A stretch of DNA of 26,623 bases from positions 1-26,623 of the forward strand of contig JBILLK010000051.1 in the NCBI GenBank assembly GCA_044376115.1. Reading direction: 5' to 3'. The DNA is from Polyangiaceae bacterium. Lineage in GTDB: Bacteria > Myxococcota_A > Polyangia > Polyangiales > Polyangiaceae. A program made the translations under genes and the position numbers. The notes under the pieces were generated by a model. The model did no database searches, was not told the DNA's origin, and saw only the letters and a list, made by a program, of their open reading frames with translations. Of this stretch, positions 3,401-26,623 are shown one piece after another (the first letter of the stretch is position 1; every line of letters begins with the position of its first letter).

Positions 3401-4531
3401 GCGCAGTAGCTCCCGCAGGTGCGCGCGGCTCTCCGCCTGCACTGGGTCTTGCCGCAAGAGCGACTTCGACATGGCGAAGGTGCCGAACAGCTGCTCATCG
3501 AGATCGTTGCGATCGGTGAGGACGACCAGCGTGGGGTTGCTCATGCGCCGGTCGAGCACGAGCTTGCGCGCATAGAACACCATGGTCAGGCTCTTGCCCG
3601 AGCCTTGGGTGTGCCACACCACGCCGACCCGGCGATCCCCGCCTTTGCCGGCTGCGCGCGCTGTCTCCTCCACCGCGCGCCGGACCGCATGGAACTGGTG
3701 ATAGGCGGCGATCTTCTTGTGCACCACGGTGCCGTCGCTGCCGCCGACGTGCTCGAAGGTGACGAAGTTCTGAACGAAGTCGAGCAGGCGCTCTTTCTGG
3801 AACAGGCCGCGCACCAGCACCTCGAGCGGCTGGGCATGTTTCGGCGCGTCTTGCTCGCCCTCCACCGTGCGCCAGCGCGCGTAGCGTGAGGCATCCGCGG
3901 TGAGCGAGCCGACCCGCGCCTCGACGTCATCCGAGGCGATCAAGAGCACGTTGGCCAGCAGCAGCGAAGGCACATCCTCGCGGTAGTTGCGTAGCTGCTG
4001 GATGGCCTTCAGCACGTCCGCTTGGGCGTCGCTCGGATTTTTGAGCTCGAACAGCGCGAGCGGCAGGCCGTTCACATACACGACCACGTCAGCGATGCGC
4101 GGCCGCCCGGTCCCGCGCTGACGATCGATCACCGTCACCTGGCTGGTCACCATCCAGTCATTGGCGTCCGGGTTCTCGAAATCGATCAGCGTCACCCGCT
4201 CCCCGGTGTTGCGGCCCTGCTCGTCCATCACATCCAGCTCGATGCCGTCGGTGAGGGCCCGATGCAGCCCCTCGTTGTCGAGTGCGAGCGTGGCCTTGTC
4301 GCGGCGCTCGACGATCTTCAGCGCCTGCTCGACTGCGTCCTCCGAAAGGTCAGGGTTCAAGCGCCGAATGGCAGCGGAGAGTCGGCCGACCAGGATCGCG
4401 TCGGTAAGATGCGAGCGCTCCTCGTGGACCGAGTCCGGATCGAGATGGTCCGGCGGCAAGACCTCGTAGCCCAGCTCCGCAAACCATTCGAGCGTCGCGA
4501 CTTCGAGGTCCGACTCGCTGACGGCGGGCAT
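473..4531 (-). CDS. hsdR: Type I restriction enzyme R subunit with an extra C-terminal HEPN-like domain
   Basis: Nuclease motif [17 protein letters not shown] and QLRNY; Walker [36 protein letters not shown]3387-like tail ending around GYPPD..EQAE, then ~290 extra residues containing RNDFAH. Confidence 0.95.
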
Positions 4532-4533
4532 GG

Positions 4534-5910
4534 TTAGAGCACCTCCGACGCAAGCCGTTCGGCCTCGGGCACGCGCAGTTCGCCGGAGAGCAGCTTGGGG
4601 AGGAGGGCGTCACGGAGAGCCGTCAGCGAAATCATGGCTGACTCATCCTCGAAGCGACGCGAGAGCGCTGAGACCAGTGAGAGAAGTGGCTTGAGGTCTG
4701 GGCGAGGGGGGAGCGCTACGGGGAAGGCGAGAAAGTCCTCTCGGCTTATCGACAGGTTTGTTGTTCCCATCGCGTGTGCACGACTGTGCGTACGGAACTC
4801 GGGGCTTCGCAGGGACCAGTAAACAAACTCGGATAGCCCATCGACTTCCGGAACGATCAACTTGACGGTGTCCTGGGTGAGACGTCCCAGCGGAACTGTC
4901 GGCGGTACGCGCGCGACGCTACCGAGCAAATCGCCGGATTGCGTTACATCTTTGAGTGAGGCAAAGAGCTCGCCTGGCCGAAGTATGAGCTTCTCGGGGG
5001 ACTCGCCTCCATAGGTGCGCAACGAATCACGTCGAAAACCTCCGTCACGTCGGATGGACGCGAGCCCAAGAAGAACAGGTCCAGGCTCACCAATATGCGC
5101 GCTCTTGTAGGTTGTACCGCGTTGGAGCTCTAGGAGGCTCCCAACTCTCGTATTGCTCCATCCTGCGGGTATGGGTCCGAGTTGGGAGTCTTCGAACTTG
5201 CCAGGAAACAGCTTTGCCGTCTCTGCATCCATCCCCTCTGGCTGCCGGCCCTCCATCTTCGCCCGCACCGGATCGAAGTCGACGAACCACGATTGAAACA
5301 GCGCGCGCGCCATCGCCTCGAGCGTCTCGTTCGTCCGACGGTTCAGCTCAATCTTGTCGTCGAGCGCACCGAGGATGCGGGCGATGGCGCGTTGCTCGGG
5401 GAGCGGCGGGCAAGGAACCTTGAACGCTTCTATATGGCCTTTTGTAATCGCGCGCCGCGAGCCCCCCGCATTGAAAGACTCGATATATGGCTTCACGTTC
5501 GGGTGTGTGAGAAAGGAAAGTAGATATCCCGGGTGAGCGACATCTGATGCAGCGCGAATGATCGACACGTGTTGATTGACGCAAGCAGGTAGAACCGACT
5601 CCGGAACCACGCACGCGCGACCAAAAGTGACGCCGTCACCAGTGATATTTAGAAGAATATCCCCCGGGCTGAGCCAAACCCCGCGAAGGCGGTGCGCCTG
5701 TTCATCTGAAATGAACGCTAAGCCTTCCTCATCGAAGCGCCGGTCAAAGACGTTCTGGCTCCGAATTAGAGCGAAACCCGTCCTGTTCTGTTGGTACGCA
5801 TCGGATCCACCTGTAGGCGTCGCACCCGAGCCGATCTTCGTTGTGATCGCCTGTAACGGAACGTGATCCCAGAGCGAAGCATATGCTGTAGGCGCGGTTT
5901 TACCTTTCAT
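4534..5910 (-). CDS. hsdS: Type I RM specificity subunit
   Basis: Two target-recognition domains separated by the conserved [45 protein letters not shown] helix; C-terminal [14 protein letters not shown]. Confidence 0.95.
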
Positions 5911-7031
5911 TGCCCACCTCCCAACTCCGCCTCAATCTGTTCCACCGTCGGCAAGCTCCCCTCCAGCTCTTTCGGCAGCGACGCGAGGATCTGCGTCTCC
6001 CACTGCGCAACGCCGATCGGCTTTGTCATGTCGCGGAGGGCGTACTCCACGACCACGCGGTTCTTCGACTTGCACAACAGGAGCCCAATGCTCGGCTTGT
6101 CGTCGGGGTGGCGCAAAAGGTCATCCACCGCGGACAAGTAGAAGTTCAGCTTGCCGGCAAACTCGGGCTCGAACGGCACGACCTTGAGCTCGATAACCAC
6201 ATAAGCGCGAAGCTTCAGGTGATAAAACAATAGGTCTAGTATGTAATCCTCCTCACCCACCTCGAGTCGGACCTGGCGGCCAACGAAGGCAAAGCCGACG
6301 CCGAGCTCGAGCAGGAACTTCTGGATGTGATCGACGAGGCCTTGTTCGAGCTCGGCCTCACGGCGAGGGTCGGCCGTGCCGAGGAAGTCGAACAGGTACG
6401 GATCCTTGAAGATCTGCGCTGCGAGGTCGGACTCGCCGTGCGGCAGCGCCTTGTCGAAGTTGGTGATGGCCTTGCCCGCGCGCGTGTGGGTCTGCGCGGC
6501 CATCTGGTGTTCGAGCGTGGCGCGGCTCCAGCCGCCGGTGATCGCGTGCTCAACGTAGTGGAGGCGCGCCGCCGGATCTTTGATGGCCTGGATGAGGCGG
6601 ACGAGGTGTCCCCATGGCAATTGTGAAACAAGCTGTTTCACTTTCTCGGCGTGGGGAGCGTGGCCCGGAAACGCCTCCGCAAACGCTCGCATGAAGAGCA
6701 AATTGCGCGGGGAGAAGCCCTTCATGTCGGGGAAGGTCTGGTTCAAGTCGGAGGACAGGCGGTCAATGATGCGCGCGCCCCAGCCCGCTTGCTCCTGCCG
6801 CTCGAGGATCAGCTGCCCAAGGTCCCAATAGAGGAGCACGAGCGCGCTGTTTGCCGTCTGAACAGTGCGAAGTCGCGCCTCTTGGATGCGCTGCTTCATC
6901 TCCCGGACGGTGTTCGCATAGTCCGCCGGCAAGCCTGCCTTGGCGGGTGCAACGGGGAACGTCGTGTCCGCGCCTCGCGTGCGACCGCGAGACAACCGCT
7001 TCGGCTCGGCGGCCTTCGGTTTAGAAGCCAT
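5907..7031 (-). CDS. yhcG: YhcG / DUF1016 PDDEXK nuclease-domain protein
   Basis: [62 protein letters not shown]. This family is commonly embedded in type I RM operons. Confidence 0.92.
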
Positions 7032-8673
7032 AACCCAGGCTCGCGAGGTTCTTCTTGATCTCCTTCTCGAGCTTCTGCCCTTCGGCGAACTGCTGGGCGA
7101 GCGTCGCCGTGAGGCGCTTCATCTTGGCGTCGAAGGGCTCACCGTCTTCCTCCACCTCTTCGGCGCCCACGTAGCGGCCGGGCGTCAACACGTAGCCGTG
7201 GCTGGCGATTTCCTCGAGCTTGGCGGCCTTGCAGAAGCCGGCCTCATCGGCGTATTTGCCAGCGCCTTTCTCCCCGCGCCAGGCGTGGTAGGTGCGGGCG
7301 ATGCGCGCGATGTCCTCATCGGATAGCTCGCGGTGCACGCGGTCCACCAAGGTGCCGAGCTTGCGCGCGTCAATGAACAGCACCTCGCCCTTACGCTTGC
7401 GATACGGCGTTGCAGCCTTGTTTTTGGCGAAGACCCAGACGCACACCGGGATCTGCGTCGCGTAAAAGAGCTGGCCCGGCATCGCCACCAAACAATCGAC
7501 GACGTCCTTGTCCACCATGGCTTGGCGGATCGTGCCTTCACCGGACTGTTGCGAGGACATCGAGCCGTTGGCCATCACCACGGCGCCAACGCCCTTGTCC
7601 GGGTGCAGGTGATGCAGAATGTGCTGCATCCAAGCGAAGTTCGCGTTGCCCGCAGGCGGCACCCCAAACTGCCAGCGCACGTCCTCCTTCAGCTTGTCCC
7701 CACCCCAATCGCTAATGTTGAACGGCGGATTCGCTAATACGTATTCGGCCTTCAGGCCCTTATGCAGATCATTGCGGAAGCTGTCGGCGAAGGTTGCCCC
7801 GAGGTTGGACTCGATGCCGCGGATAGCCAGGTTCATCTTCGCCAGACGCCAGGTGGTGGCGTTGAACTCCTGGCCAAAGACCGAAATATCCGTGGCGCTA
7901 CCGCCGTGCGCCTCCAGGAACTTCTCACTCTGGACGAACATGCCGCCCGAGCCGCAACACGGATCGAAGACGCGGCCCTTCATCGGCTCGATCATCTCGA
8001 CCATCACCCGCACGACCGATTGCGGCGTGTAGAAGTCACCGCCCAAGCGGCCCTCGGCCGAGGCGAACTTGGAGAGGAAGTACTCGTACACCCGGCCGAG
8101 CACGTCCTTGGTCGGGTTCTCCTTGTCGTGCAGCGCAACGCCGCTGAGCAGGTCGATCAGCTCGCCCAGCCGATGTTTGTCGAGCGCGGGCCGCGCGTAC
8201 TCTCGCGGCAAGGTTTGTCGAAGCGCGTCGTTCTCCCGCTCGATCGCCTCCATCGCCTCGTCGATCTTCTTGCCGATCGACGGCTGCTTGGCCTCCTGCT
8301 GCAAGCTCGACCAGCGCGCCTTCTCCGGCACCCAAAAGACGTTCTCGGCGCTGTACTGCTCCTTGTCATCCACCTCACTCGGGTCCTCCGCGGCGATCAA
8401 TTCGCGCCGCAGCTCGAACGCGTCGGAGATGTACTTGAGGAAGATCAGCCCAAGCACCACGTGCTTGTATTCTGCCGGATCCAAGCTACCGCGCAGCTTG
8501 TCCGCCGCGAGCCAGAGCTTCTCCTCAAAGCCGATCACCGCCCCGGAGGTCTTGTTGGCTTTGCCCCGGCCGCCCTTGCTCGAAGGCGGCGGCGTGCTCT
8601 CGACGGTCGTGCCCTGAGCCTTCGCGCGTGGAGCCTTCGCTTTGGTGGGGCCATGCCCCTTCTTTGCTTTCAT
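7021..8673 (-). CDS. hsdM: Type I RM N6-adenine methyltransferase M subunit (start re-called to ATG 8673 or GTG 8676; the ORF-track start at 9030 overlaps the sigma gene)
   Basis: [35 protein letters not shown]-binding FDPCCGSGG, catalytic [12 protein letters not shown]. Confidence 0.95.
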
Positions 8674-8683
8674 CACCACGTCG

Positions 8684-8710
8684 CACGCCCCAGGTTGCCG
8701 AGTTCTGACA
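8684..8710 (-). promoter_or_regulatory. ECF-type promoter motif, copy 1 (upstream of the hsdM operon)
   Basis: Minus strand TGTCAGA-actcggcaacctggg-GCGTG, 7 nt before GTG 8676 and 10 nt before ATG 8673. Confidence 0.65.
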
Positions 8711-8796
8711 CGGCGAGGAACGTACCGCGGCGCGCTGGCTGGTTCCAAGCATTCCTGGCTTTTCACCAGCCAGCCTGCCCTGGTAGCGTTCATCCC

Positions 8797-9339
8797 GTGG
8801 CGACGGGGGCCGAGGCACTTGAGTGGAATGAGGTCGTGGACAGGCTGCGCGCCTTGCCCGAGGCAGAGCGTTTTGGCCACGCCGATGCTGGCCGACTCTA
8901 CATGCTGGCGCAGCGGCTTGCCCCGGGGCTCTTGCGTGGGTTCACGCTTCGGACCGAGACGCCCGAGGACCTCGCGAGCGGGCTGCTTGCCGAGAAGTTC
9001 GCGCAGCTCGTCGAGGATAGCGGGGACCATGCATGGCCCTATTTTGTGGCCGCCCTTAGGAACCGAGCCATCTCGTGGATCCGTCGTCCGCTATCCAAAG
9101 TCAGTTCCAAGGAGATTGAGGGTGTGCGCTCGACGGAGGACGAAACGCGATATCACGCTCGTCAGCACCTAACGATCGTATGGAGGAAGCTCAGTCAGAA
9201 AGAGCAGGAGATCTTCGCAGCGGACGACGCAGGCGAAAGCCGGGAGGCAATCGCCGCGCGATTCAAGACGAGCCGCGCCAACATCGACCAGATCATTTCG
9301 CGAGCGCGCGAGCGGTTGAGAGCGCAGGGGTTAGGATGA
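8797..9339 (+). CDS. ECF-type sigma-70 factor (~180 aa; C-terminal part of ORF 7762..9339)
   Basis: Region 2-like [24 protein letters not shown]; region 4 [44 protein letters not shown] start inferred 7 nt after an extended -10 (TGGTAGCGT, 8781-8789). Confidence 0.82.
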
Positions 9340-10088
9340 GCCTGCTACTTCCATCGAGGCGGATCGATCTCCCCGGCGGCTATCGCTGGGAGCCCAACTT
9401 GGTCGATTTGGAGGCATGGCAGGCGCACCTGCTCAAGCACCCCCTCGGCCTCTGGGCAACGCGCGAGTTGGGCCGGTCGTGGGATCATGAGAGCTGGACC
9501 AAGACCACGCCTCCAGTGCTGGACGAGCAGAAGCGTTCACAGCTGTTCGCGGCGATCGCTCAGGCTAGCTCGGCCGCGAATGCCTGCGCGGTGCCGGAGG
9601 TATTCGGTGTGCAATCGTCACAAGAAACGGAACCGCAGTGCTACCGCTGCAAGGCGCCGTTGCTCACACAGTGCTTTGGCCTCATGAACTCTATCGGCAT
9701 CTCGCCCCGCTACGCTGAACTCACGGAACAGGTCGTCGCAAGCTTGAGTGAGGGCGAGGCGGTTGAACGGCGGGCGCTAGCTGCAACGCTGCAAAGAACA
9801 GCACGCCGCATGGAGGATTGGTCCAACCTGGTCGTTATGGCCGTTGGCAACCTTGGCCGTGAGGCTGGACACGGGCTCCGCCTGACACGGGGCGACGGGA
9901 TCCGGGTCGAGCTCAGGCTCGGCCTCAACCACCGACTGCAATGGCGGACGACCTACCGTATCCCCGAGATTGCTGCGCATTCGGGGGCCTGGGGGTACCT
10001 ACTGAAGCTGCCCGACCCAGCGCCCAAACTTTCTTTGTCAGATGTCTACGTCGTCCCGCGTGCCTGGTGGCAAGAACATGGAAGCTGA
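9336..10088 (+). CDS. Hypothetical protein (250 aa) with a Cys cluster, coupled to the sigma gene
   Basis: ATGA overlap with the sigma stop; contains C..CYRC..C; no family recognised. Confidence 0.75.
   Translation: MSLLLPSRRIDLPGGYRWEPNLVDLEAWQAHLLKHPLGLWATRELGRSWDHESWTKTTPPVLDEQKRSQLFAAIAQASSAANACAVPEVFGVQSSQETEPQCYRCKAPLLTQCFGLMNSIGISPRYAELTEQVVASLSEGEAVERRALAATLQRTARRMEDWSNLVVMAVGNLGREAGHGLRLTRGDGIRVELRLGLNHRLQWRTTYRIPEIAAHSGAWGYLLKLPDPAPKLSLSDVYVVPRAWWQEHGS
10036..10062 (+). promoter_or_regulatory. ECF-type promoter motif, copy 2 (internal, upstream of the putative anti-sigma)
   Basis: TGTCAGA-tgtctacgtcgtccc-GCGTG, 15 nt before ATG 10078. Confidence 0.55.
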
Positions 10089-11208
10089 ACGCACCCCAAT
10101 GCATGAGCTGACGGCAGGTGGTCTCGAAGGTCTGGCAGACCAGCCGTTTGGCACGATGGATACGCAGGCGCTGATCGTAGCGATGACCGTGCTCGGCGAT
10201 GCTGTGCGGCTTGGCATGCCAGTACCGTCCGCGCTTCTTCAGCGCGTGACCCGAGAACTCACGCAGGCTCAAATCGAAGGCGTGTTCACTTCGCTCAAGG
10301 AGGAGGTGGGCGGTTGGGCATTGCCGCGGAAGCTTGGTCACGACGACGATCCGATGTTGGAGTGGGCAATCGGCCGACGTGACGAGATCGAGAGCGTTCT
10401 CATCGGTGCGCGTCGCATCTTCATGCCGCGCGGAGTCTTGATCGACGCCTCTGCACAGGCGCAGAGCTTGGCGGTTGCGATCAGCCAGCGCGATCTGACC
10501 TGTGGAGGTTCGGTACCTCGCAGCGACGCCGAGAGGCTTCTGGGTCAACGGCTTGAGCTGGTGGCCGAACGCTCGTGGCTAGACAAGCTGAACTGGGCGG
10601 CCGAATCCGAATCGACATCACCTGATGCTTCGCCTCCGGAGCAGCTGGGTCTCGGCCGGCCAAGCTTCGAATCTTTCGCGCGATACGTGATCACCGGGGA
10701 GCTCGCGACCTGGGTTGAGACGGCCGCAAACCGCTCGAGCGATGTTGCAGCGGAATTGGAAGACGTCGTCGCCACCTACCGAGAGCAAGGCAACGTATTG
10801 AGCCTATTGGCGGCGCGTTGGATGCGTGACCGCCGGGCTCAGACCGGGGAGCCCAGGCTGCCGATCGCGTTTCGGCGGGCACGCCTGAGCGAGCAACGGT
10901 TCGCGGCCGCAGACCAAGAAGCCACTGCTGAAGCTGACGCACACGAGCGCAATCTCGGCGTTCTGGCGCCCCTCGACGCCGAAGCCCGGTTCGTAGAGAC
11001 CGACCGCACCCTCACACTCGAAGTGTTTGAAGGCAAGACCACGCTGAAGTCGGTGAGCTTGGATGGTGTGCTGGCGGAGCGGCCTGCAAGCGGGCACACC
11101 TGGTCCATCACCATCCCGTGGGTGCAGCGCGACCGGGCTGTGAAGCTCCAGGTCGTAGATGTCACAGGCAACGCGTTCGAGGAGGCGATCGCCTGGACCG
11201 ACGAGTGA
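10078..11208 (+). CDS. Hypothetical protein (376 aa), putative anti-sigma / protease substrate
   Basis: Overlaps the upstream stop by 11 nt. Helical N-terminal part, linker RRARLSEQRFAAADQEATAEAD, then a ~90-aa beta-rich C-terminal domain. Function is inferred from context only. Confidence 0.7.
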   Translation: MEAERTPMHELTAGGLEGLADQPFGTMDTQALIVAMTVLGDAVRLGMPVPSALLQRVTRELTQAQIEGVFTSLKEEVGGWALPRKLGHDDDPMLEWAIGRRDEIESVLIGARRIFMPRGVLIDASAQAQSLAVAISQRDLTCGGSVPRSDAERLLGQRLELVAERSWLDKLNWAAESESTSPDASPPEQLGLGRPSFESFARYVITGELATWVETAANRSSDVAAELEDVVATYREQGNVLSLLAARWMRDRRAQTGEPRLPIAFRRARLSEQRFAAADQEATAEADAHERNLGVLAPLDAEARFVETDRTLTLEVFEGKTTLKSVSLDGVLAERPASGHTWSITIPWVQRDRAVKLQVVDVTGNAFEEAIAWTDE

Positions 11209-12959
11209 ACCGCGCACAATTCGAGAGAGCCATCACCGACGCAGAGCGGGCGTCGCTCGCCTCCGCCCGCGCCAGGCTGCACCAACTCCGACGATGTTTG
11301 GGCGAGGTGTGGGTCGATGCGGGTTTGCAACGCCGGATGCTTGAGCTTGCCAGGCGGTGCGACGAGGCGCTGCCTGAGATCCCAGCACACGATCTAGCTA
11401 TCGGCGATGCTTGGCTGCTCCTCGTGGCCGAAGCCGGTGGCGCCGGCACTGTCGCCCGAATGAGGGTCGCGCGGCACCGGCCAAGCGCGAACCTCCTCGA
11501 GGCGTTCGAAACCAGCAACGCCGTGATGGGCCTGGCTGCAGCAGCCGCTCAATCGCGACGGTTCGTTCCGCATGAAGCGCTCGGTTTGCGCTTCGAGCTG
11601 GCTGATCAGTCGGTAGTGCGAAGGGTGCAAGGTGGGTCGCTCGGGCTATCAGCCTGTGTAGCGCTCGTATCATCTCTGACAGGGATGCCACCGCGATCAA
11701 ACGTCGCGGGAACTGCGAGGATCGACCCGGCAACGGGCAAGCTCCTATCTGTCACGCATGTAGAGGCGAAGCTTCGTGCACTCCGAGAAGAGTGGCCCCA
11801 TGTCGACACCGTGGTGCTCGCTGGTGACCAACCACTTCCAACCGATCTACGCGGCCTCAGCGTGATTCACGCGAGCGCTTTGCGAGAGGCTCTGGAACCC
11901 TTCGGTCTCAGTCTCGACTCCTTGCCGCAACCTCCGATCGAGAACCTCCGAGCACGGGTGGGTGCGTTTAGCTCCGATGATGCTGTCGCCCACGATCTGG
12001 GCCAATGGATGTCGCGCTCCATCGAGGCCCTGGAGATAGCGCAACTGCTTGAAGCGGAAGAACCGGATCTCGCGGCTCACTCACGGATATGGGCAGCCTT
12101 GTTCGCGTCGCATGCCGGAAGGAACGATCAGGCGGAGCGGATCTTGGCGCAAGTCACCGAAGCTCAGCTAGAGGAGCCAGAGCACCGCGTCATGCGAGCC
12201 GTCGTGCTGGCCTCTGTGCGGATCGATGAGGACCCCAGAGCCGCAGCGACGCTGGGTGCGGACGCCGTTGAGCTGGCCCAAGCGCTGGAGGGTCGAAACT
12301 GGCGGGAGTGGCACGGCAAGGCGCTTGGGACTCATGGCCGCGCGCTGATGCATGCAGGCGAATACAAAGAGGCAGTGCCGCTCCTTCGCAAAGCGTACGA
12401 ACATCACCGCGATCACCTGAGGCGAGAAGCCGGCAGATCGGCTTGCTACCTCTCATGCTGTCTGCGGCTCGCGGGCCGACCATTGGCGGCACTAGAGATG
12501 GCGCAGCTCGCGCACGATTCGGCCGACATTGCGGCAAAGGTCTCCACCGCAGCCAGCTCGACGCTCGCCTACGCGGACCTGGAGAAGGCACGGGCGCTCG
12601 AAGTGTTGGGCCGTTTCGAGGATGCTGCTGTCCTGCTGCAGCGACTGGTGACCACCGGAGCTAGCCATCGTCACTATCCTCGGCTCGGCGCGCATCGAAC
12701 CCTGGCGAGGGTGTTCCGTGCACAGGGCCGCCTACCCGAGGCGGACGACCATCGCCGGCTATGCTGGGATGTCGCATGCGACGAAGGGCAGGGGATCACG
12801 GCACGCAAGCTGGGTCTGGTCGCAGCGTGCGAGGAGCTCGATCACGCAGCCAGTACGCAGCGAGAGCCCATGATCAGCTCGGGCGAAGTCGAGGCGCTCG
12901 CGAGCGTCCTCCTCGGAACAGCCTCGCGAGCCCACACCCTTAAAACCTGGGTCTACTAA
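11205..12959 (+). CDS. Lon-type (S16) protease domain fused to TPR-like repeats, no AAA+ domain (584 aa)
   Basis: GTGA overlap start. VQGGSLGLSACVALVSSLTG..VAGTARID..GKLLSVTHVEAKL..VVL matches the Lon_C core, with Ser145 (11637) and Lys189 (11769) 44 residues apart (43 in E. coli Lon S679/K722). The C-terminal half has TPR-like helices (ALGTHGRALMHAGEYKEAVPLL, LARVFRAQGRLPEA). Confidence 0.8.
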   Translation: MNRAQFERAITDAERASLASARARLHQLRRCLGEVWVDAGLQRRMLELARRCDEALPEIPAHDLAIGDAWLLLVAEAGGAGTVARMRVARHRPSANLLEAFETSNAVMGLAAAAAQSRRFVPHEALGLRFELADQSVVRRVQGGSLGLSACVALVSSLTGMPPRSNVAGTARIDPATGKLLSVTHVEAKLRALREEWPHVDTVVLAGDQPLPTDLRGLSVIHASALREALEPFGLSLDSLPQPPIENLRARVGAFSSDDAVAHDLGQWMSRSIEALEIAQLLEAEEPDLAAHSRIWAALFASHAGRNDQAERILAQVTEAQLEEPEHRVMRAVVLASVRIDEDPRAAATLGADAVELAQALEGRNWREWHGKALGTHGRALMHAGEYKEAVPLLRKAYEHHRDHLRREAGRSACYLSCCLRLAGRPLAALEMAQLAHDSADIAAKVSTAASSTLAYADLEKARALEVLGRFEDAAVLLQRLVTTGASHRHYPRLGAHRTLARVFRAQGRLPEADDHRRLCWDVACDEGQGITARKLGLVAACEELDHAASTQREPMISSGEVEALASVLLGTASRAHTLKTWVY

Positions 12960-12974
12960 ATTCGGAGGATATTC

Positions 12975-13001
12975 TGTCAGAGGCGGGCCGCCTGCCGCGT
13001 G
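12975..13001 (+). promoter_or_regulatory. ECF-type promoter motif, copy 3 (upstream of the coiled-coil nuclease)
   Basis: TGTCAGA-ggcgggccgcctgcc-GCGTG, 8 nt before GTG 13010. Confidence 0.65.
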
Positions 13002-13009
13002 GGGGTTAC

Positions 13010-14722
13010 GTGAACAACGCTGCGGCTCTGGCCGCCTCCTCCGGGCCCACTTCCTCCAACCTCTCGCTCGCTTCGTCGTTGGTGGTCGACGCGACCTTCG
13101 ACGGTGAGACGCTACGAGCCTCCATCTGCGACTCCAGCCAAGAACTCGCTGGCGTCCTTACGCATCTCGAACCTGCACGGCGCTCACGCTTCGTTGAGAC
13201 GGTGTGGACGTCCGGCCTTCGAGCGGCGCTCAATGCGCAGCGGCTCGCCGATGAGGCACGGCTTGACGATATTGGTCGTGAACTTGTGACGACCTTCGGT
13301 GAGAAGCTGGAGGCCTATCACGACCGACAGCACTCCGATCTCGCCCGCGCGCTCGCTGAGTACTTCGATCCCAAGGATGGCCGTGTAGCGGCGCGGATCG
13401 ACGGCTTTCTGCGCGATGGCGGGGAGCTGGCGCGGACGATGGATAAGTATCTATCGGCGGATGGTGAGCTGGCCAAGACGCTCGCACGGTCCTTTGGTGA
13501 GTCGAGTGCGCTCATGAAGCGGCTCAGCCCAACGGACAGTGAGGGCCTGGTGCAGCTCGTTGAGAACAAGCTGCGAGCTGCTGCCGAAGCCCAGCGCGTT
13601 CAGTTCGCGGCCGCGCTCGACCCGGCTAACGAATCCGGCTCGCTTGCTCGCTTCTTCAGCAAGGTGAAGCAGGAACTCAAGTCAGCTGGCGAAGAGCGCG
13701 ACAAGCAGTTCGCTGCGCTCTCACGAACGCTCGATGTCAATGACCCGAGCTCGCCGCTCAGCCGCTTCTTCAGGGAGAGCTCGAACGCAAACCGCGAGAT
13801 GCTCAAGGCGATGAACGCCGAGGATCCTTCTACGCCGCTCGGAGCGATCAAGGCTTCGCTCGTAAGGCAACTCGAGTCGAGCACCAAGTTGCAGCTTGAG
13901 AAACTCGACGCGATGGCGACCGTCCAGCGCGAAGATAGCCTCGCCCTCCGAGAGGCCGTGGCCAAACTCGAGGAGCGGCGTAGAGTCGTGGCGCGTTCCG
14001 CCGCAGCTGGGCCGACCTTCGAGGACGCACTGCTCGTGACCCTAGGCGACATTCTGCGTGGCTCTGGCCTCACCCTCGACGCGACGCGCACCGCCGTCGG
14101 GCTACGACCCAACTGCAAGAAGGGCGACGCGGTCGCGCGCTACGGCGCGGAGTCCAAACATGCCGGCGCTGCCGTGGTCATCGAGGCCAAACACGACGCG
14201 AGCTACAACGTGAGCCGCGCACTCGCCGAGATGGAGGAGGCCCGCAGCAATCGCGATGCTTCCGCAGGACTGTTCGTCATGGCGCGATCGCATGCTCCGG
14301 CTGGGTTCCCGCGGTTTCAGCGGCATGGTCGCGACATACTGCTCACTTGGGATGACGCCGATCCTTCGACGGACGTGGTGCTCGAGGCTGGGCTCCAACT
14401 CGCGCTGTTCATCGCACCGCTCGGCCGCCGTGAGTCTGCGGGGCGCGAAGACATCGAGTCGCTCGCGGACCTCGAGTCCCGCATCGAGAAGGAGCTCGGT
14501 CGCTGGGACGGGGTGCGCAAGAAAGCCGAGCGCATGAGGAAGGACGCGGAAGAGCTGCTCGAGGACGCGCGGAAAGGGGAGAAGGCCCTCGGATTGATGC
14601 TCAAGAGCGCCAAGCACGTGCTGAAGACGCTCGACATCCCGCTTCTCGATGCTGGTTCGTCGCGAGAGCCCGCTCTGCTGCTGGCTGAGCGGAGTGAGTT
14701 CGATTCGGATGCGGCCGAGTGA
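13010..14722 (+). CDS. Coiled-coil protein with a C-terminal PD-(D/E)XK-type nuclease domain (RmuC/DUF2130-like architecture)
   Basis: Long helical/coiled-coil region, then GPTFE..KKGD..VVIEAK..Y (E/D/ExK arrangement) and a closing coiled coil. Confidence 0.7.
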   Translation: MNNAAALAASSGPTSSNLSLASSLVVDATFDGETLRASICDSSQELAGVLTHLEPARRSRFVETVWTSGLRAALNAQRLADEARLDDIGRELVTTFGEKLEAYHDRQHSDLARALAEYFDPKDGRVAARIDGFLRDGGELARTMDKYLSADGELAKTLARSFGESSALMKRLSPTDSEGLVQLVENKLRAAAEAQRVQFAAALDPANESGSLARFFSKVKQELKSAGEERDKQFAALSRTLDVNDPSSPLSRFFRESSNANREMLKAMNAEDPSTPLGAIKASLVRQLESSTKLQLEKLDAMATVQREDSLALREAVAKLEERRRVVARSAAAGPTFEDALLVTLGDILRGSGLTLDATRTAVGLRPNCKKGDAVARYGAESKHAGAAVVIEAKHDASYNVSRALAEMEEARSNRDASAGLFVMARSHAPAGFPRFQRHGRDILLTWDDADPSTDVVLEAGLQLALFIAPLGRRESAGREDIESLADLESRIEKELGRWDGVRKKAERMRKDAEELLEDARKGEKALGLMLKSAKHVLKTLDIPLLDAGSSREPALLLAERSEFDSDAAE

Positions 14723-14756
14723 CCGACAGCAGTCGTGCGCGGTCATGTCGAACCGA

Positions 14757-15296
14757 TTAGGACGGCTTCAGACCGAAGAGCTTGAGCTCATCCCTCACGG
14801 CTCGGAGGAGACGCTCGACCGCCCCGCGCGCCGCCATGAAGCTGCCCTGGTAGCCGTCCCAGTCCTCGTACGCGGTTGGCGCCGTGTACTCACCATCGAC
14901 CAGGAACGGGTAGCGGTAGCTGATTTCCTCGGGGGCGTTTCTTGGCGTCGTCGAATCGATCTTCAACAGCGTGGACGCCTCGCCCGCCAGGTTCTTTCTG
15001 ACGAAGGACTGTACCTCACGCTCAAGCAGATGCAGCGCCTTCGACAGCGGAGTGTTGGTCTCTGCAACAGTCTTCAGCGGCGAGTGTTGGAGGAGGAAGA
15101 GCCGCTCGAACTGCGCATGCTCTTCAACGCCACCATTCCAACGCATGAGTGCGAAGGCCTTGATTGCCTTCTCATAGGCTTGCTGAATCCAGTACCGGCG
15201 GTGGCATTCTCGAAGGTCGGCGGACTCAGCGCGCGCCGCGAGCAGGTCGGCGTCAGCCTGCTCGATCCACGCCTTAACCTGCTGCCGCGTGGCCAT
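14757..15296 (-). CDS. HEPN domain protein (start re-called to ATG 15296)
   Basis: WIEQADADLLAA..YWIQQAYEKAIKA..H..RYP, the pattern of HEPN proteins of HEPN/MNT pairs. Confidence 0.8.
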   Translation of the reverse strand: MATRQQVKAWIEQADADLLAARAESADLRECHRRYWIQQAYEKAIKAFALMRWNGGVEEHAQFERLFLLQHSPLKTVAETNTPLSKALHLLEREVQSFVRKNLAGEASTLLKIDSTTPRNAPEEISYRYPFLVDGEYTAPTAYEDWDGYQGSFMAARGAVERLLRAVRDELKLFGLKPS

Positions 15297-15636
15297 TCGT
15301 CGCTCGCGCGATGTCTTGCAGTTCGCGACCGCGAGCGACACCGTGAAGGACCTCGCCGGCTGCGATCTCATGCGCGAGCGCGGGGTCCGCTTGAATGGCG
15401 CGCTTGAGACCATCCAGGTCGGCCGCAATCAGGTTGAGTGGATGGCGAAACGAGCGGCCCGGGTTGAACGCCACCGGGCGCTCCGGGTGCTCGTCGGCGC
15501 CGAACGACGGGATCAGCTCAACGAGCCAGGCTTCTCGATCCTCACGACGAATCCAGATCGCCGTCTCCAACGGGTCGTCCTCGATCGCGGCGTGCGCCTG
15601 AACTAGTTCGAGCATCTCTTCACGGGTGGGAGGCAC
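15274..15636 (-). CDS. Small HEPN partner protein, possibly a degenerate minimal nucleotidyltransferase (MNT)
   Basis: 120 aa, overlaps the HEPN start. C-terminal LAHEIAAGEVLHG resembles MNT tails, but there is no GS..DxD catalytic motif. Confidence 0.6.
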   Translation of the reverse strand: MPPTREEMLELVQAHAAIEDDPLETAIWIRREDREAWLVELIPSFGADEHPERPVAFNPGRSFRHPLNLIAADLDGLKRAIQADPALAHEIAAGEVLHGVARGRELQDIARATNGHAAAG

Positions 15637-15675
15637 AGCCTGAACGTAGCACGGCCCGCGGGTAGCCGTGCCGCT

Positions 15676-16662
15676 TCAACGCGCCCGACAGGGCTCGGCT
15701 TCGGTCACCTTGAATCGAGCGCTCAGGAGGCCCTGCTGAGTAAACACGAGGCAGTGGTTCTCGTTCGCTGGTCGACCGTCCAAACGTTCGACACATTGGA
15801 CGACGAAAGGTCCGCCGGGATCGACCGAGGCCGGCCCGCACGATTCGAAGTAGGTTTTCTTGTTCGGATTGCGGTCGAACCAGTTCTTTACCCAGGCCGA
15901 GACGTCTTCCTTCGGGGCATCCGTCAGCTTGAAGTACCGGTTCATCGGGAACTGCATGAGGCTAGTGACGCGGCCCACGTCGAATGAGTTGATCGCTTCT
16001 TCATAGCTCTTCACCCAGCGTGAGGTGTTGGTGGTGCGCTGGTCAGCGACTGGCTCCGTCGTCGCAATTGGGAGCGGCTTGGCGTCAAGTTCGGATCGAT
16101 TCAGGAGCCACCAAGCCGTGGCCGAAATCCCGACGACTGCCACTCCGCCCAGCCCGACTCCAATCACGTAGCGCCGTCTGCCGGCAGCGCCGGGTTGCCG
16201 AATCGGCTCGGCCTCGACGGCAACCGGTAGGTCCGTTTGGGTATCGAGGTATTCGAGCAACGTCGTACTGTGGCGCAGCATCTCTTGGACGACTTCGGGT
16301 GAGATGATTTTGAGCTGGCTCGTGGCGTGGTGGGCTGAGTCAGCCGCGGGCTTCAGCTTGAGGACGGCGTCCCGGACCGCCAGCGGAAATTGCGGGGAGA
16401 GCCGGATGAGCGCCTTCGCAAGCTGCTCTTTCCGCGGCTTGTCACCCTTGTAGGGTTTGAACGTCGGGTCCTGGATCGACAACAGCGCAAACGCCCACGC
16501 CTCAAGCACCTTGCGTAGAACTTCGAGAGTACGCCCCGGCTCGCTTTGGGCATGGCTGCGAGCGTCACGGAACTCGCGGTGCGCGACGGCCTCCCACTGG
16601 TCGCGCGCGCTTCTTCTCGCGGCCGTGTCGTCAACGTTTGTTCGTGCCCCCACGTCGGTCAT
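15676..16662 (-). CDS. Single-pass membrane protein: DUF4145/HEPN-like N-domain, TM helix, NTF2-like C-domain
   Basis: LRKVLEA..LAKALIRL..LKLKPAADSAHH; TM RRRYVIGVGLGGVAVVGISATAWWLL; C-domain WVKSYEEAINSFDV..FPMNRYF with several Cys. Start is uncertain (16662-16677). Confidence 0.6.
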   Translation of the reverse strand: MTDVGARTNVDDTAARRSARDQWEAVAHREFRDARSHAQSEPGRTLEVLRKVLEAWAFALLSIQDPTFKPYKGDKPRKEQLAKALIRLSPQFPLAVRDAVLKLKPAADSAHHATSQLKIISPEVVQEMLRHSTTLLEYLDTQTDLPVAVEAEPIRQPGAAGRRRYVIGVGLGGVAVVGISATAWWLLNRSELDAKPLPIATTEPVADQRTTNTSRWVKSYEEAINSFDVGRVTSLMQFPMNRYFKLTDAPKEDVSAWVKNWFDRNPNKKTYFESCGPASVDPGGPFVVQCVERLDGRPANENHCLVFTQQGLLSARFKVTEAEPCRAR

Positions 16663-16694
16663 CCTACGCAGCCTCAAACAATTTTGAACGACCG

Positions 16695-16721
16695 TGTCAG
16701 AAGCTCATGCCCTCAGGAGTG
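16695..16721 (+). promoter_or_regulatory. ECF-type promoter motif, copy 4 (upstream of the helicase)
   Basis: TGTCAGA-agctcatgccctcag-GAGTG, 8 nt before ATG 16730. Confidence 0.6.
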
Positions 16722-16729
16722 TGAAGGGC

Positions 16730-19321
16730 ATGAACAAGCTCCCCGCCTCCTGGTCCCTCCGCTACTCGCTCCCACTTGCCGCCCGCGAGGGTGTCACGGT
16801 TAGCACCGCCTCGCTGAATCTCAGCGAGCAAACGCGCGACTACCTCGATCAGAAGTACCCGAGCGGGCTGTTCCGCCACCAGCACCTAGCGGTCGAGAAG
16901 CTGCTCGCTGGCGACAACGTTTGTATCGCAACCCCCACGGCCTCCGGCAAGAGCGCAGTCTTTCAGACTGCAGCGCTCGAAATCCTGGCGCGCGATCCGG
17001 AAGCACGCATCCTTGCGCTCTATCCGATGAAAGCGCTCGGATGCGAACAAGAGGCCCGCTGGGTCGCGGCGCTCAAGGCGGCTGGCATTGCCGGCGGTGT
17101 TGGCCGAATCGATGGCAACGTGCGGGGGGCGGCGCGCAACCTCGTCTGTTCCAAGTCGCGCGTGCTGATCGCTACACCGGATGTGGTCCATACATGGCTC
17201 CTCACAAGGGCCGCTACGAAGGGCTTTGAGGCCGCCACTCGCTTCGTGCGCAACCTGCGGCTCGTCGTCGTGGATGAGGCCCACACGTACAGCGGCGTCT
17301 TCGGCTCGAACTCGGCCTTCGCCTTCCGCCGCCTTCAGCACATGGCCGGCGTGCTGGGCGGCGGCCTGCAGTGGGTCGCGTGCTCCGCGACGATGAGGGA
17401 CGCGAAGGGGCACCTCGAGCGACTGGTCGGTCGTCCGTTCGCTGTGATCGGCGAGGAGGAAGACAGCTCGCAACGGCATGAGGTCAGCATCGACATGGTC
17501 GCTCCGAACGATGGGGTCGACTTTCACAGTGGCCTCGCCGAGCTACTCGGACAATTGCGTGATAGCGGGGAGCAGTTCCTCGCGTTCTTCGACAGTCGCA
17601 AAGCGAGCGAGCAGATGGCCGCGATTCTCCATCGCGATGAGCCGGGTTCGGATACCGATGGCTTCGATCACTTGCTGGATCGCTCGGTGCTTCCGTATCG
17701 CGCCGGGTATGAAGCCGATCATCGGAAGGTCATCCAGGATCGGCTAACCGACGGCTCGTTGCGCGGCGTCTTATCAACCAGCACGCTCGAACTCGGCCTC
17801 GACCTGCCGCACCTCAAGACGGTCGTCCTGGTCGGCGTACCTAGCTCGGGTACGAACCTGCGTCAGCGGATCGGACGCGTGGGACGAAGTTGTCCGGGCC
17901 GGGTGATCGTCGTCAATACTGGCTCGCTCGGAGACACGCTCGTCTTTGAGCAGCCTTCGCAACTGCTCGCACGGCCATTGCATGAATCCACGATCTACCT
18001 CGAGAACCGGCGCATTCAGTACATCCATGCGATGGCCTTGGCGCGGATCGACGGTGAGCACGACCACGCGGCGCTCGCAGCCAAGCAGCCGAGCGCGAGC
18101 CTATTGCAGTCCGTGGCCTCCTGGCCTGAAGGCTTCCTGGCCTTGTGTGACGCGGAGCATGCAGGAGTGGTGCCGCGTGAGCTACAGGACATGCGGCGCG
18201 ACGCCGGAGAGCAACCGACGTTGACGTTCATGCTCCGGGATGTGGAGCCGCAGTTCGACGTCGAGCAGCGGTCGGGCTTTCGACGCGGGGAGAAGCTGGG
18301 CACGCTCAGTCACGGACAGGTTATGCGCGAGGCCTATCCGGGCGCGGTCTACTACTACACAGGCCGGCCCTATCGCGTAACGGGCGTGAACGTCCGCCAG
18401 CGCAAGGTCTTCGTACAGCCGTGCGCCCGCCATACTACGAAGCCGGTGCCTGTGCGATCGCAGCTCACGCCGCAGAGTCAGGTGTTCGGCGGTTTGAGGT
18501 CCGGTCAGCTCTCGGCGATTGAGTGCGAGCTGCAGCTTTGGCGCAAGGTGCTTGGCTTTTCCGAGCGGGCCGGCTCCAAGGTGGAACAGGTGAACTACCC
18601 GTGCGAAAGCCCCGTCCGCTACGAGCAACCCAACTTCTCCCGCGCGTTGTTCACGACCGGTGTGTGCCTGGCGCACCCAGAGCTCGACAGGCAAGGCGTC
18701 GACCCGGAGATGATCTCTGCGCTACTACTCGAGGCTTTCCTTCACTTCGTTCCCATCGAGCGCCAAGACGTCGACGTGGACACGGACTGCTTGCGTGCGA
18801 GCTGCGCCGGGCTCGAGAAGGGCCGGCGAATCGTCGCGCTTTTCGACCAGGCCGCTGGAGGATTGCGGATCACCGAACGCCTGAGTGACCCTGAGGTGCT
18901 TCGCTCCGTACTGGAGGGGATGGTGGCCATCATTGCCGAGCGGACGACGCTCGCGGTCAAGAATGAGGAGCGTCCGATCTCGCTCGCCACCCGGGCCGCC
19001 CTTGAGGCCATGCGCAACGACGCCCAGCAAGACGTCTTAGCGATCGAAGGCCAGTGCGACCCGCTAGCCGCGTCGGAGCGTGTGGCTGTGCTGCTCCCGA
19101 AGAGCCTCGGCGTCGTTCGCAGCAGGCCCTCGGAGCAGTTCGAGATTCACAAGGTGTTCAATCACCCGACGATGGGCGTCGCGTACCGTGGCGTATTCAT
19201 CGGCTCGAATGGCGAGCGCTCCAGTGCTCAAACCGTGACTGTCGACATGGTCGAGGGGCTTGCGGGCCACGTGGTCCAAGGGTTCTATGATCCCGAGACC
19301 GACGAGCAAGTCGCTGCTTGA
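16730..19321 (+). CDS. SF2 DEAH-box helicase, MrfA/Hrq1/DUF1998-like
   Basis: LFRHQ Q-motif, TPTASGKS, YPMKAL, TPD, DEAH..GVFGS, SAT, YRAGY, LELGLD, QRIGRVGR, EAYPGAVY, LFDQAAGG. Start re-called to ATG 16730. Confidence 0.9.
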   Translation: MNKLPASWSLRYSLPLAAREGVTVSTASLNLSEQTRDYLDQKYPSGLFRHQHLAVEKLLAGDNVCIATPTASGKSAVFQTAALEILARDPEARILALYPMKALGCEQEARWVAALKAAGIAGGVGRIDGNVRGAARNLVCSKSRVLIATPDVVHTWLLTRAATKGFEAATRFVRNLRLVVVDEAHTYSGVFGSNSAFAFRRLQHMAGVLGGGLQWVACSATMRDAKGHLERLVGRPFAVIGEEEDSSQRHEVSIDMVAPNDGVDFHSGLAELLGQLRDSGEQFLAFFDSRKASEQMAAILHRDEPGSDTDGFDHLLDRSVLPYRAGYEADHRKVIQDRLTDGSLRGVLSTSTLELGLDLPHLKTVVLVGVPSSGTNLRQRIGRVGRSCPGRVIVVNTGSLGDTLVFEQPSQLLARPLHESTIYLENRRIQYIHAMALARIDGEHDHAALAAKQPSASLLQSVASWPEGFLALCDAEHAGVVPRELQDMRRDAGEQPTLTFMLRDVEPQFDVEQRSGFRRGEKLGTLSHGQVMREAYPGAVYYYTGRPYRVTGVNVRQRKVFVQPCARHTTKPVPVRSQLTPQSQVFGGLRSGQLSAIECELQLWRKVLGFSERAGSKVEQVNYPCESPVRYEQPNFSRALFTTGVCLAHPELDRQGVDPEMISALLLEAFLHFVPIERQDVDVDTDCLRASCAGLEKGRRIVALFDQAAGGLRITERLSDPEVLRSVLEGMVAIIAERTTLAVKNEERPISLATRAALEAMRNDAQQDVLAIEGQCDPLAASERVAVLLPKSLGVVRSRPSEQFEIHKVFNHPTMGVAYRGVFIGSNGERSSAQTVTVDMVEGLAGHVVQGFYDPETDEQVAA

Positions 19322-19358
19322 TTCCTTGGGTCAGACCACAACGGTGTTTGAGCGACCC

Positions 19359-20030
19359 TCAACTCGCCTCCGCCACCACCAGACTGCTGCTAACGCTGTG
19401 CGTCCTCAGCCCCGGGTAGCAAACCGAGCTTGCACCGCAGGCGAGGCGCAAGCAGCCTCCTTGCGCCGGGGTGATCTGCGTGCGCTCGCTGAAGGTCGCG
19501 ATGATGCGACTGCTTGGCCTTAGTTGGGTCGCGAGGTTGTCCAACAGGGCGAGGGCGTCGGTTGGGTGGAGCGCCGAGAGCACGCCCTCGAGTACGACGC
19601 AGACGGGGCGTTTTGGGGCGAGTACGCGGGTGAGCCAATCGGCCTTCTCGAGGTGGCCGCTGAGCTGCCAAAGCGCCTCGTAGTCACCGTCGAAGAGCTC
19701 GCGGCGTAGTTCTGCGACGGCGGGTTCATCCACGGTGATGAAGCGAGCGTCGAGCGCTGAGACGCGCGCAAAGCGCGTCGAGAGGCCGGCTCCGATCTCG
19801 AGTACCGGTGAGCCGGGCCGAAGCTCGTGCCAAGCTGCAACCAAGCGATCGACGGCCAACGTCTCGGCGAAGGCACGGTCCATCTGCTCTTCGGACGGAA
19901 CACCGTCGATATGTTGTTCGAGGCAGTCCCAAAGGTCCGCCGCGATCGGGTCGAAGAAGGCGCCTTCACGAGCCTTTTGGCCGCGCGCGGCGAGCGAGGC
20001 GATCTGATTGAACGGTAGCTCGAGGCACAT
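19359..20030 (-). CDS. Class I SAM-dependent methyltransferase (LCM/TcmP-like)
   Basis: VLEIGAGLSTRFARV, VDEPAVAELRRELF, VVLEGVL. Confidence 0.75.
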   Translation of the reverse strand: MCLELPFNQIASLAARGQKAREGAFFDPIAADLWDCLEQHIDGVPSEEQMDRAFAETLAVDRLVAAWHELRPGSPVLEIGAGLSTRFARVSALDARFITVDEPAVAELRRELFDGDYEALWQLSGHLEKADWLTRVLAPKRPVCVVLEGVLSALHPTDALALLDNLATQLRPSSRIIATFSERTQITPAQGGCLRLACGASSVCYPGLRTHSVSSSLVVAEAS

Positions 20031-20036
20031 TGCTTA

Positions 20037-20639
20037 TTAGCTCCCACTGTAGAATTCGACGACCCGCTGCAGCTCGATCGGAAACAGGATCGAGTCCGCG
20101 TCCGGCAGCGCGCGAAGCAAGATCGCGTCGGCGCGTGGTTCGAGCCAGGAAGGGCGCTCGATCGATTGATCTGCGAGCGCGACCTTGATGTGGACGTTCT
20201 CCTGCGCGCCGGGCTTGAGCGAGATCAGTTCACCGGCGCGTGTACGGTAGGAGGCCCGGTCGACGCGGCGCCCATTGACCAGTACGAAGCCGTGATTGAC
20301 CAGTTGCCGCGCGGCCGGAATCGTCCGAGCGAAGCCCGCGCGAAACACCACGTTGTCCAGCCGGCGCTCGAGGAACTCTACGAGTCTCGGCCCTGGCGCA
20401 CCGAGCGAACGCATGGCCTCGGCCATCAGATTGGAGAGCTGCCGTTCGGACACGCCGTAGTTGGCGCGCAGCTTCTGTTTCTCGATCAGCCGCAGCTTGT
20501 ATTCAGAGACCTTCTTGCGAGCTTGACCGTGCTGCCCAGGCGGGTAGGGGCGCTTCTCGATCTTCTTGCGTGACAGGCCAGGGAGGTCGCACCCAAGGGC
20601 GCGCATGGTGCGGACGCGGGGTCCCGTTGATCGACTCAT
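20037..20639 (-). CDS. rpsD: 30S ribosomal protein S4, stand-alone paralog lacking the Zn-binding CxxC motif
   Basis: [71 protein letters not shown]. Confidence 0.97.
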
Positions 20640-26498: not shown

Positions 26499-26623
26499 GA
26501 GGGTGTCAGAATTTCCGTGTTACTTGCCTAGATGGGCAGTCGGTCGGGAAACATGATGGCTAGATGCGCGAGCGCTTTCGTCCAGGCGACGGGCCGATTC
26601 CATCTGTGCTTGGCCTTTGCCAA
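26499..26623 (-). mobile_element. IS256-family insertion sequence, right end (partial)
   Basis: Terminal GAGGGTGTCAGAATTTCCGTGT resembles IS256 inverted repeats and follows a transposase-like C-terminus. Confidence 0.8.
26528..26623 (-). CDS. C-terminal fragment of an IS256-family transposase
   Basis: LAKAKHRWNRPVAWTKALAHLAIMFPDRLPI* matches the IS256 C-terminal W..P..W..AL....I.F.DR pattern. It is not in the ORF track. Confidence 0.75.
   Translation of the reverse strand: MAKAKHRWNRPVAWTKALAHLAIMFPDRLPI

Follow-up and report, generated by a model that had tools for sequence, protein, structure and literature searches.

Our analysis of a 26,623-nt stretch of DNA from a Polyangiaceae bacterium (contig JBILLK010000051.1 of assembly GCA_044376115.1; hereafter the window, which is the whole of contig C3 in the 10.14-Mb genome G000) indicates that a 27-bp element, present in four copies in a defence island, is very probably the promoter recognised by the island's own extracytoplasmic function (ECF)-type sigma factor. 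The sigma gene belongs to a module of four overlapping genes, located between an hsdM operon and a putative nuclease gene and encoding the sigma, a Cys4/His protein (hereafter the Cys4 protein), a putative anti-sigma, and a Lon-type protease with TPR repeats (Lon-TPR). The original prediction had paired element and sigma from the four copies in the window, and this pairing is supported by co-occurrence of the two across genomes, by reverse prediction from element to sigma locus, by absence of the element from same-genus genomes without the sigma, by constraint on codons that overlap the element, and by covariation of the promoter boxes with the sigma.

The four 27-mers are present at the coordinates and on the strands first reported, with zero mismatches. 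In particular, copy 1 (8684–8710, minus strand) lies upstream of the hsdM-yhcG-hsdS-hsdR operon, 7 nt from GTG 8676 or 10 nt from ATG 8673 of hsdM; copy 2 (10036–10062, plus strand) lies within the 3′ coding tail of the Cys4 gene, upstream of the anti-sigma/Lon-TPR operon and 15 nt from ATG 10078; copy 3 (12975–13001, plus strand) lies 8 nt from GTG 13010 of the putative nuclease; and copy 4 (16695–16721, plus strand), a variant with AGTG, lies 8 nt from ATG 16730 of a DEAH-box helicase. The intergenic copies accordingly end 7–8 nt from a start codon, as had been claimed (counting from GTG 8676 for the first). When the window was shuffled and one mismatch was allowed, the mean was 0.32 copies, and four copies were reached in 0 of 100 shuffles. 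The window holds six TGTCAGA heptamers in all, and the other two (11675, minus strand, and 26504) lack the second box, again as reported. The heptamer at 26504 is contained in a contig end common to five other contigs (26497–26623; a repeat or the end of an insertion sequence (IS)).

Exact copies of the element are confined to the island in G000. Specifically, G000 contains 238 TGTCAGA heptamers, only six of which are followed by G[AC]GTG after 15 nt, and each other spacing from 12 to 19 nt gives 0–1 occurrences. The two copies outside the window are on contig C88, at 1506 and 4302, each 8 nt upstream of an ATG. An IS-like element has one of its ends at the start of C3 and the other at the start of C88, next to GTTGA and an 83-bp repeat in both cases, and, because these features match, the two contigs are probably two halves of one island. 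A motif scattered over the genome regardless of gene starts would have spoken against the original prediction; we find that 6/6 exact sites are in the island, on the sense strand, 7–15 nt upstream of starts. Three further TGTCAGA-N16-[CA]GT[CG] sites in G000 have no ATG 6–10 nt downstream, which argues that no host regulon uses the motif.

The geometry first proposed for the element, TGTCAGA-N15-G[C/A]GTG, holds, although the second box is better written N16-[C/A]GT[G/C]. A CCT in the spacer, noted earlier in the three intergenic window copies, is indeed present there but is missing in both C88 copies (CCG and CGT); spacer position 19 is T in 29/63 sites, a weak preference. Because of this absence and this weakness, CCT is not part of the element. 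The commonest gap between site and start codon is 8 nt (14 of 75 collected sites), and a start is located at 7–10 nt in 31/75 collected sites, as compared to 21/238 for all TGTCAGA heptamers in G000. In Mycobacterium tuberculosis sigma-H, the last −10 base (T−9) is flipped into the loop before an aromatic pair (accessible text of bioRxiv 10.1101/534826). If the second box ends in the corresponding flipped −9 base, then position +1, 8 nt further on, coincides with the start codon, and we infer that four of six units would yield leaderless mRNAs. Copies 3 and 4 are predicted to be leaderless, and the start sites of copies 1 and 2 are predicted near 8675 and near 10071, respectively. A short fixed distance to start codons would also suit some non-promoter role at the 5′ ends of genes, such as that of an operator, of a translation signal, or of a relic of recombination, and cassette-boundary repeats do occur in defence islands. 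Such a role has only the slightest chance of being correct: the element is non-palindromic, its two boxes are separated by a spacer rigidly 16 nt long and free in sequence, the second box, CGT[CG], is of a type characteristic of ECF promoters, the orientation is strictly sense, and a sigma gene is linked to the element.

The element follows the sigma across genomes, all of which are kin, with counts reported here without a test statistic. A scan with sigma region 4.2 identified 14 genome loci, 12 of which hold at least one TGTCAGA-N16-[CA]GT[CG] site (shuffle means, 0–0.15), while the other two hold N15 versions located 8 or 15 nt upstream of an ATG. A loose motif pattern occurs 0–12 times per genome in 41 related genomes, and at least three sites within 30 kb are found in five of these (G000, G646, G642, G667, and G601, among the matches listed, which omit one in G646). 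A sigma gene lies inside every such cluster, the core sigma in four and a more distant one in G601; the fifth genome with the core sigma, G163, has one adjacent site, with a stop inside the match. Of ten genomes of the same genus, eight lack both sigma and cluster, and the other two have both. A reverse search starting from motif clusters led to the module in G646. The motif search over the genome and homologous islands, proposed with the original prediction as a check, finds exact sites only in the island in G000 and, in relatives, clusters of at least three sites only where such a sigma is encoded.

The regulon itself also recurs. G646 and G642 repeat the regulon of the window (anti-sigma, hsdM side, nuclease, superfamily 2 (SF2) helicase, and DEAH helicase) with unrelated spacers. 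The site moves along with the orthologous nuclease gene in loci L057, L088, and L015, the hsdM-side copy is at the same position in L007, L057, and L088, and orthologues of the helicase copy are present in L058 and L089. All nine loci found later with a Cys4 profile contain the four-gene module and a TGTCAG[AGC]-N16-CGT[CT] site upstream of the anti-sigma, and in L033, L047, and L054, which lack the Cys4 gene, the motif is still located between sigma and anti-sigma. Genes behind sites elsewhere encode UvrD-PDDEXK, DnaQ exonucleases, SbcD, MoxR, ClpP, PP2C, and a GNAT. Frameshifts or sequencing errors affect G646 (L057 and L058), where each of the matches to anti-sigma, nuclease, hsdM, and helicase is distributed over more than one frame. 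In G678 (C113 and C38) and G676 (C27 and C46), one contig carries a large regulon with 9–10 sites and another carries additional clusters, which points to control in trans.

The copy inside the Cys4 gene leaves a trace in codon use. The Ser and Arg residues encoded by the motif in the Cys4 tail use TCA and CGT in 8/8 homologues compared first, codons with a background use of 4.3% and 11.3%, respectively. With G642 and nine loci found later by the Cys4 profile, the total is 18/18, and 16 of the 18 homologues were found by protein, not by motif. At the protein level, the Ser is kept in 81/84 and the Arg in 78/84 Cys4 sequences. Codon use shows that the DNA boxes inside the Cys4 coding sequence are under selection.

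Both boxes vary with the sigma. All 19 sites in the islands of the window and C88, L007, G646, and G642 end in GTG, and most others end in GTC. The sigmas of the window, L007, and G646 form one clade (support 0.997) without the PRA loop before the conserved aromatic pair (YF motif), and the G642 sigma has the same loop type. Gln-type helices go with A or G as the seventh base of the −35 box, and the helix VDKAMQR, present in three related loci, goes with C; Lys at the Q165 position goes with C as the seventh base in two separate groups. For a sister sigma with QNVxKAASNGR, TGTCAGA sites are absent, and G[GT]TTCAGC...GAGTG occurs five times in two genomes of a single genus, three of these occurrences being within 28 kb.

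The sigma gene (8797–9339, plus strand; start taken from P0001) encodes a 180-aa ECF-type sigma with sigma2 and sigma4 domains only. Its match to TIGR02937 has an E-value of 8.3e-9, below the cut-off, and its profile matches the solved ECF sigmas 5uxx and 4cxf over both domains, positions 22–175 (E-values 9e-7 and 8e-6). There is no sense motif copy upstream of the sigma gene; a sigma-70 consensus scan of 8400–19500 identified 0 promoters, and terminator counts there were equal to those in shuffles. A search of viral contigs for sigma relatives found none.

The original prediction had drawn a parallel to ECF41, sigmas with a C-terminal extension that use the promoter TGTCACA-n16-CGTC (accessible text of PMC3426412 and PMC7826278). 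The two-box geometry is alike, with five common −35 bases, a 16-nt spacer, and a CGT core (compared with the accessible text of PMC3426412). Classification of the island sigma as ECF41 was rejected: the protein ends just past region 4, without a C-terminal (SnoaL-like) extension and without a match to TIGR02957. Classification of the −35 box as the ECF41 box TGTCACA was likewise rejected, all six island sites being TGTCAGA. Thus the parallel stands for geometry and fails for the protein and for −35 position 6, where G replaces the C of ECF41. Further differences are the separate partner, the multi-operon regulon, and the mostly leaderless arrangement, as compared to the 22–23 nt leaders of ECF41 (PMC3426412).

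The ECF41 parallel raises the prospect that the sites are read by a host factor, such as an ECF41-like sigma, another ECF sigma, or a DNA-damage activator, to which the island is tuned. In its favour, G000 encodes an ECF41-like sigma on contig C12 (E-value 4.8e-51), and the island sigma gene has no motif copy, although ECF sigmas usually autoregulate (accessible text of PMC7826278). We consider control by a host factor decidedly unlikely, because the other sites in G000 do not form a host regulon, because 8/10 same-genus genomes lack the cluster, and because the box bases change with the island sigma and not with the host; all island sites, moreover, have G at the C of ECF41.

The three partner genes of the sigma lie directly downstream. 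The Cys4 gene (9336–10088, plus strand), the start of which overlaps the sigma stop codon, encodes a 250-aa protein of no known family. The family comprises 99 representatives at 50% clustering; in 84 aligned sequences (the window protein and 83 of the 99 representatives, with fragments and a few others excluded), residues H35, C84, C102, C105, C113, and Y126 are invariant (84/84). Pfam and PDB profile scans of the family returned nothing credible, and neither the Cys4 protein nor the putative anti-sigma had a usable match in the ESM Atlas. An AlphaFold2 model of the Cys4 protein is confident (pLDDT 95) and has a single domain. The putative anti-sigma (10078–11208, plus strand; 376 aa) is predicted to comprise a helical N-terminal domain, a four-helix unit (residues 197–255), a disordered linker with an Ala-Ala (AA) motif (residues 272–284), and a C-terminal beta domain. 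Class I anti-sigma domains have a three-helix bundle and a fourth helix that binds the sigma; the model has four helices at 197–255, which may or may not correspond, and zf-HC2 is matched at an E-value of just 0.025 in a fused relative and not at all in the window protein.

The Lon-TPR gene (11205–12959, plus strand) encodes a Lon-type (S16) protease without an AAA+ module, followed by TPR repeats (E-value 4e-11 to Lon structures). The Ser-Lys pair S145 and K189 is kept in 27/27 Lon-TPR homologues, and the alignment has no stretch conserved enough for scanning. The AA in the partner's linker is kept in 15/15 aligned Lon-linked partners and in 9/9 loci found later by the Cys4 profile, and an AA motif precedes the Lon domain in 6/6 fused forms read. 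In the fused relatives (L015:9263–12364, L016:8847–11441, L017:9030–11570, and L036:9315–12272), a long N-terminal region is joined to Lon-TPR through the AA motif; these relatives adjoin a more distant sigma and often, by eye, an NYN/PIN-like gene, and they are possible self-cleaving anti-sigmas. The module is patchy: the Lon-TPR profile finds 11/401 genomes of a phylum sample and the Cys4 profile 13/401 genomes of an order sample, own genome included. The loci with a taxonomic label belong to Polyangiaceae, Labilithrix, Myxococcaceae, and other myxobacterial or deltaproteobacterial assemblies.

We propose a mechanism for the module that, taken as a whole, is probable, if less so than the promoter assignment. 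At rest, the sigma would be bound by the four-helix unit of the 376-aa protein. The TPR region or the Cys4 protein would sense a signal and thereby activate the Lon domain, which would cut the 376-aa protein at the Ala-Ala linker. The C-terminal AA left exposed would direct the fragment to ClpXP, as described for CalpT, and the sigma would be freed. The sigma would then switch on six units: the type I restriction-modification (RM) operon, the anti-sigma/Lon-TPR operon, the putative nuclease, two helicases, and an exonuclease. We infer, as did the original prediction, that the RM system, nuclease, and helicase are inducible outputs of the protease cascade. The presence of a site before the inhibitor and protease but not before the sigma gene suggests negative feedback, and, because the sigma would drive its inhibitor and protease and not its own gene, the output would be a self-limiting pulse. 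Phage infection, or the DNA damage that comes with it, is the probable trigger.

Control might also be arranged differently around the same promoter, with the Cys4 protein as the sensor or real inhibitor, or with Lon-TPR as an effector whose cuts fall on other targets, without release of the sigma. This arrangement is improbable, yet it is the more serious contender to protease-released sigma: the Cys4 gene overlaps the sigma stop codon and is predicted to be on the same transcript, the Lon-TPR gene is among the promoter's own outputs, loci without a Lon-TPR match still have sigma and motif, and a Haliangium PCaspase cuts many proteins, including a sigma (accessible text of bioRxiv 10.1101/2023.06.23.546230). 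Against it, sigma, anti-sigma, Lon-TPR, and motif remain in the three loci that lack the Cys4 gene, and the AA linker is kept throughout the Lon-linked partners aligned and the fused forms read.

Several observations weigh against our account of promoter and mechanism. On the side of the promoter, the ECF41-like sigma of G000 might cross-read the sites; 17/75 collected sites have no downstream open reading frame under the filter used; the CGTG/CGTC switch is a single evolutionary event; the seventh-base pattern rests on few related genomes; and contig C2 of G665 has two well-placed sites and a Lon-TPR-like gene with no sigma match in the 20 kb fetched. On the side of the mechanism, the putative anti-sigma has no family match in Pfam, PDB, or the ESM Atlas; alignment of its profile with the N-terminus of a fused relative (hhalign) yielded no alignment (probability 0.3%); the proteins are Ala-rich, so the AA motif is partly expected; and in L044, L045, and L055, where the fetched stretch has no Lon-TPR match, this sigma and motif are paired with a partner anchored in the membrane. 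Many of the regulon genes (DnaQ exonucleases, UvrD, SbcD, ClpP) suit DNA repair as well as defence. Because L044, L045, and L055 keep sigma and motif in this setting, the protease would not be essential to the promoter, and the input to the regulon would be exchangeable. The membrane-anchored partner in these loci ends in a CxCxxGDPxCxC tail, and a paralogous membrane protein is found as a target.

The logic of the module resembles that of CalpL/CalpT/CalpS and of DdvA/DdvS, but defining parts of both are missing here. In the former, a type III CRISPR system with the ECF-like sigma CalpS, the SAVED-Lon protease CalpL cuts the anti-sigma CalpT in LAAA, exposing an AA degron (accessible text of bioRxiv 10.1101/2024.05.08.593097). 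Similarities to that system include a Lon domain that has a Ser-Lys pair and no ATPase, a partner whose small C-terminal domain follows an Ala-rich linker, and an adjacent ECF-like sigma; in the island, the AA is conserved in a predicted disordered linker, and cleavage there is proposed by analogy. Differences include TPR in place of SAVED (the Lon-TPR protein has TPR and Lon_C matches only and no PADLOC match); a partner with an N-terminal part predicted to be all-helical and no MazF-like or DUF2080 match in Pfam or PDB sequence searches; an extra Cys4 gene; and a target promoter and regulon readable from sequence. A scan of the window proteins found no Cas10, cyclase, or CRISPR gene, the context in which CalpL occurs.

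In Myxococcus xanthus, DdvS runs a defence island from four promoters (accessible text of PMC11506125). Here too an island-encoded ECF sigma would drive a defence island from several promoters, and TPR and protease occur in control, in DdvA within one protein. In that system, the anti-sigma DdvA sits in the membrane, with TPR-CHAT on the periplasmic side, and ddvS has its own DdvS-dependent promoter (accessible text of PMC11506125). Here, by contrast, the parts look soluble, the Lon-type protease has a gene to itself, no such promoter precedes the sigma gene, and RM, helicases, and nucleases make up the outputs. No CHAT domain was matched among the proteins scanned, and the partner is predicted to have helical and beta domains. 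The SAVED-CHAT/PCaspase/PCc-sigma system of Haliangium ochraceum likewise has a protease-linked sigma in a myxobacterial defence locus, but its proteases are of the caspase family, triggered by cyclic oligoadenylate, and CRISPR-linked, and the targets of its sigma are left open in the accessible text of bioRxiv 10.1101/2023.06.23.546230. A literature search, the coverage of which left out most subscription journals, found no description of the module or of a TGTCAG promoter, and TGTCAG was not found among the entries listed in the accessible part of the ECF re-classification supplement (PMC7826278).

The predicted regulon covers part of the island. The type I RM operon (473–8676, minus strand) comprises hsdM (7021–8676), yhcG/PDC-S02 (5907–7031), hsdS (4534–5910), and hsdR (473–4531). 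The gene at 13010–14722 (plus strand) encodes a coiled-coil protein with a putative PD-(D/E)XK nuclease domain, the motif of which we take, by eye, to be PD-(D/E)XK-like. The label of nuclease given in the original prediction gains from a weak Mrr_cat match in a homologue (E-value 0.0019) and loses from the absence of a Pfam match in the window protein; the gene adjoins the module in L015, L017, L057, and L088. The DEAH-box SF2 helicase (16730–19321, plus strand) matches TIGR03817 (E-value 4.7e-69, below the cut-off) and Pfam DEAD and Helicase_C. On C88, the regulon members are an SF2 helicase-HNH after the copy at 1506 and a DnaQ-type exonuclease after the copy at 4302. The claim of an island-wide regulon was too broad: the sigma-Cys4 operon, a HEPN/MNT-like pair, and the gene at 15676–16677 have no sense copy.

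The HEPN/MNT-like pair at 14757–15636 (minus strand) consists of a HEPN-like gene (E-value 0.0026) with a small upstream partner and is likely a toxin-antitoxin pair inserted in the island. The product of the gene at 15676–16677 (minus strand) has 333 aa, one stretch of which is hydrophobic, and is a candidate for a sensor or an effector at the envelope; the gene adjoins the module in G646 and G642 too. The open reading frame at C88:359–1501 resembles an extra C-terminal domain of the island HsdR (28% over 272 aa), and this extension is also present on HsdR of L007 and L058. A ribosomal protein S4 gene (20037–20639, minus strand) lies outside the island, away from a ribosomal operon, and is probably a paralogue.

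At the contig break, where the island appears to continue on C88, IS ends at 1–127 of the window (no strand assigned) and 1–126 of C88 are inserted in a repeat array with a 5-bp GTTGA duplication; the IS is presumably IS21-like. The array has a 41/42-bp period with alternating orientation, the core TCAACAGGGTCC, and an exact 83-bp duplication, followed by 22-bp units. It is found at three places in the genome, at 128–432 of the window and C88:127–400, at C8:44747–45274 and 49563–49698, and at C22:516–979; the C8 copies are partial and lie on either side of two genes, with other defence-like genes in the same region. The array possibly represents recombination or cassette-insertion sites.

Protease-gated sigmas are known, both CRISPR-linked and in DdvA-DdvS, and their target promoters often are not; here promoter, variants, and regulon are read from sequence, the circuit is directly testable, and the motif is usable as a search tool for defence genes. 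Because the site is rare genome-wide, the sigma and its site are a candidate orthogonal switch, and, because a Lon-TPR homologue is present in cultured Sorangium strains, there may be a host for bench work. An RM operon under a stress sigma would, if true, be an unusual inducible form of restriction. We see an even chance that the module represents an undescribed family of master switches that are soluble, work without CRISPR, and control the defence islands of myxobacteria, in which Lon-TPR, as sensor protease, would free an orthogonal ECF sigma to switch on a leaderless regulon, a type I RM system included, that any incoming gene could join by acquiring a 27-bp promoter, and in which sigma recognition helix and promoter would have diversified together (Gln with A or G, and Lys with C, at the seventh base), with one promoter lying within the codons of a new metal-binding protein family.

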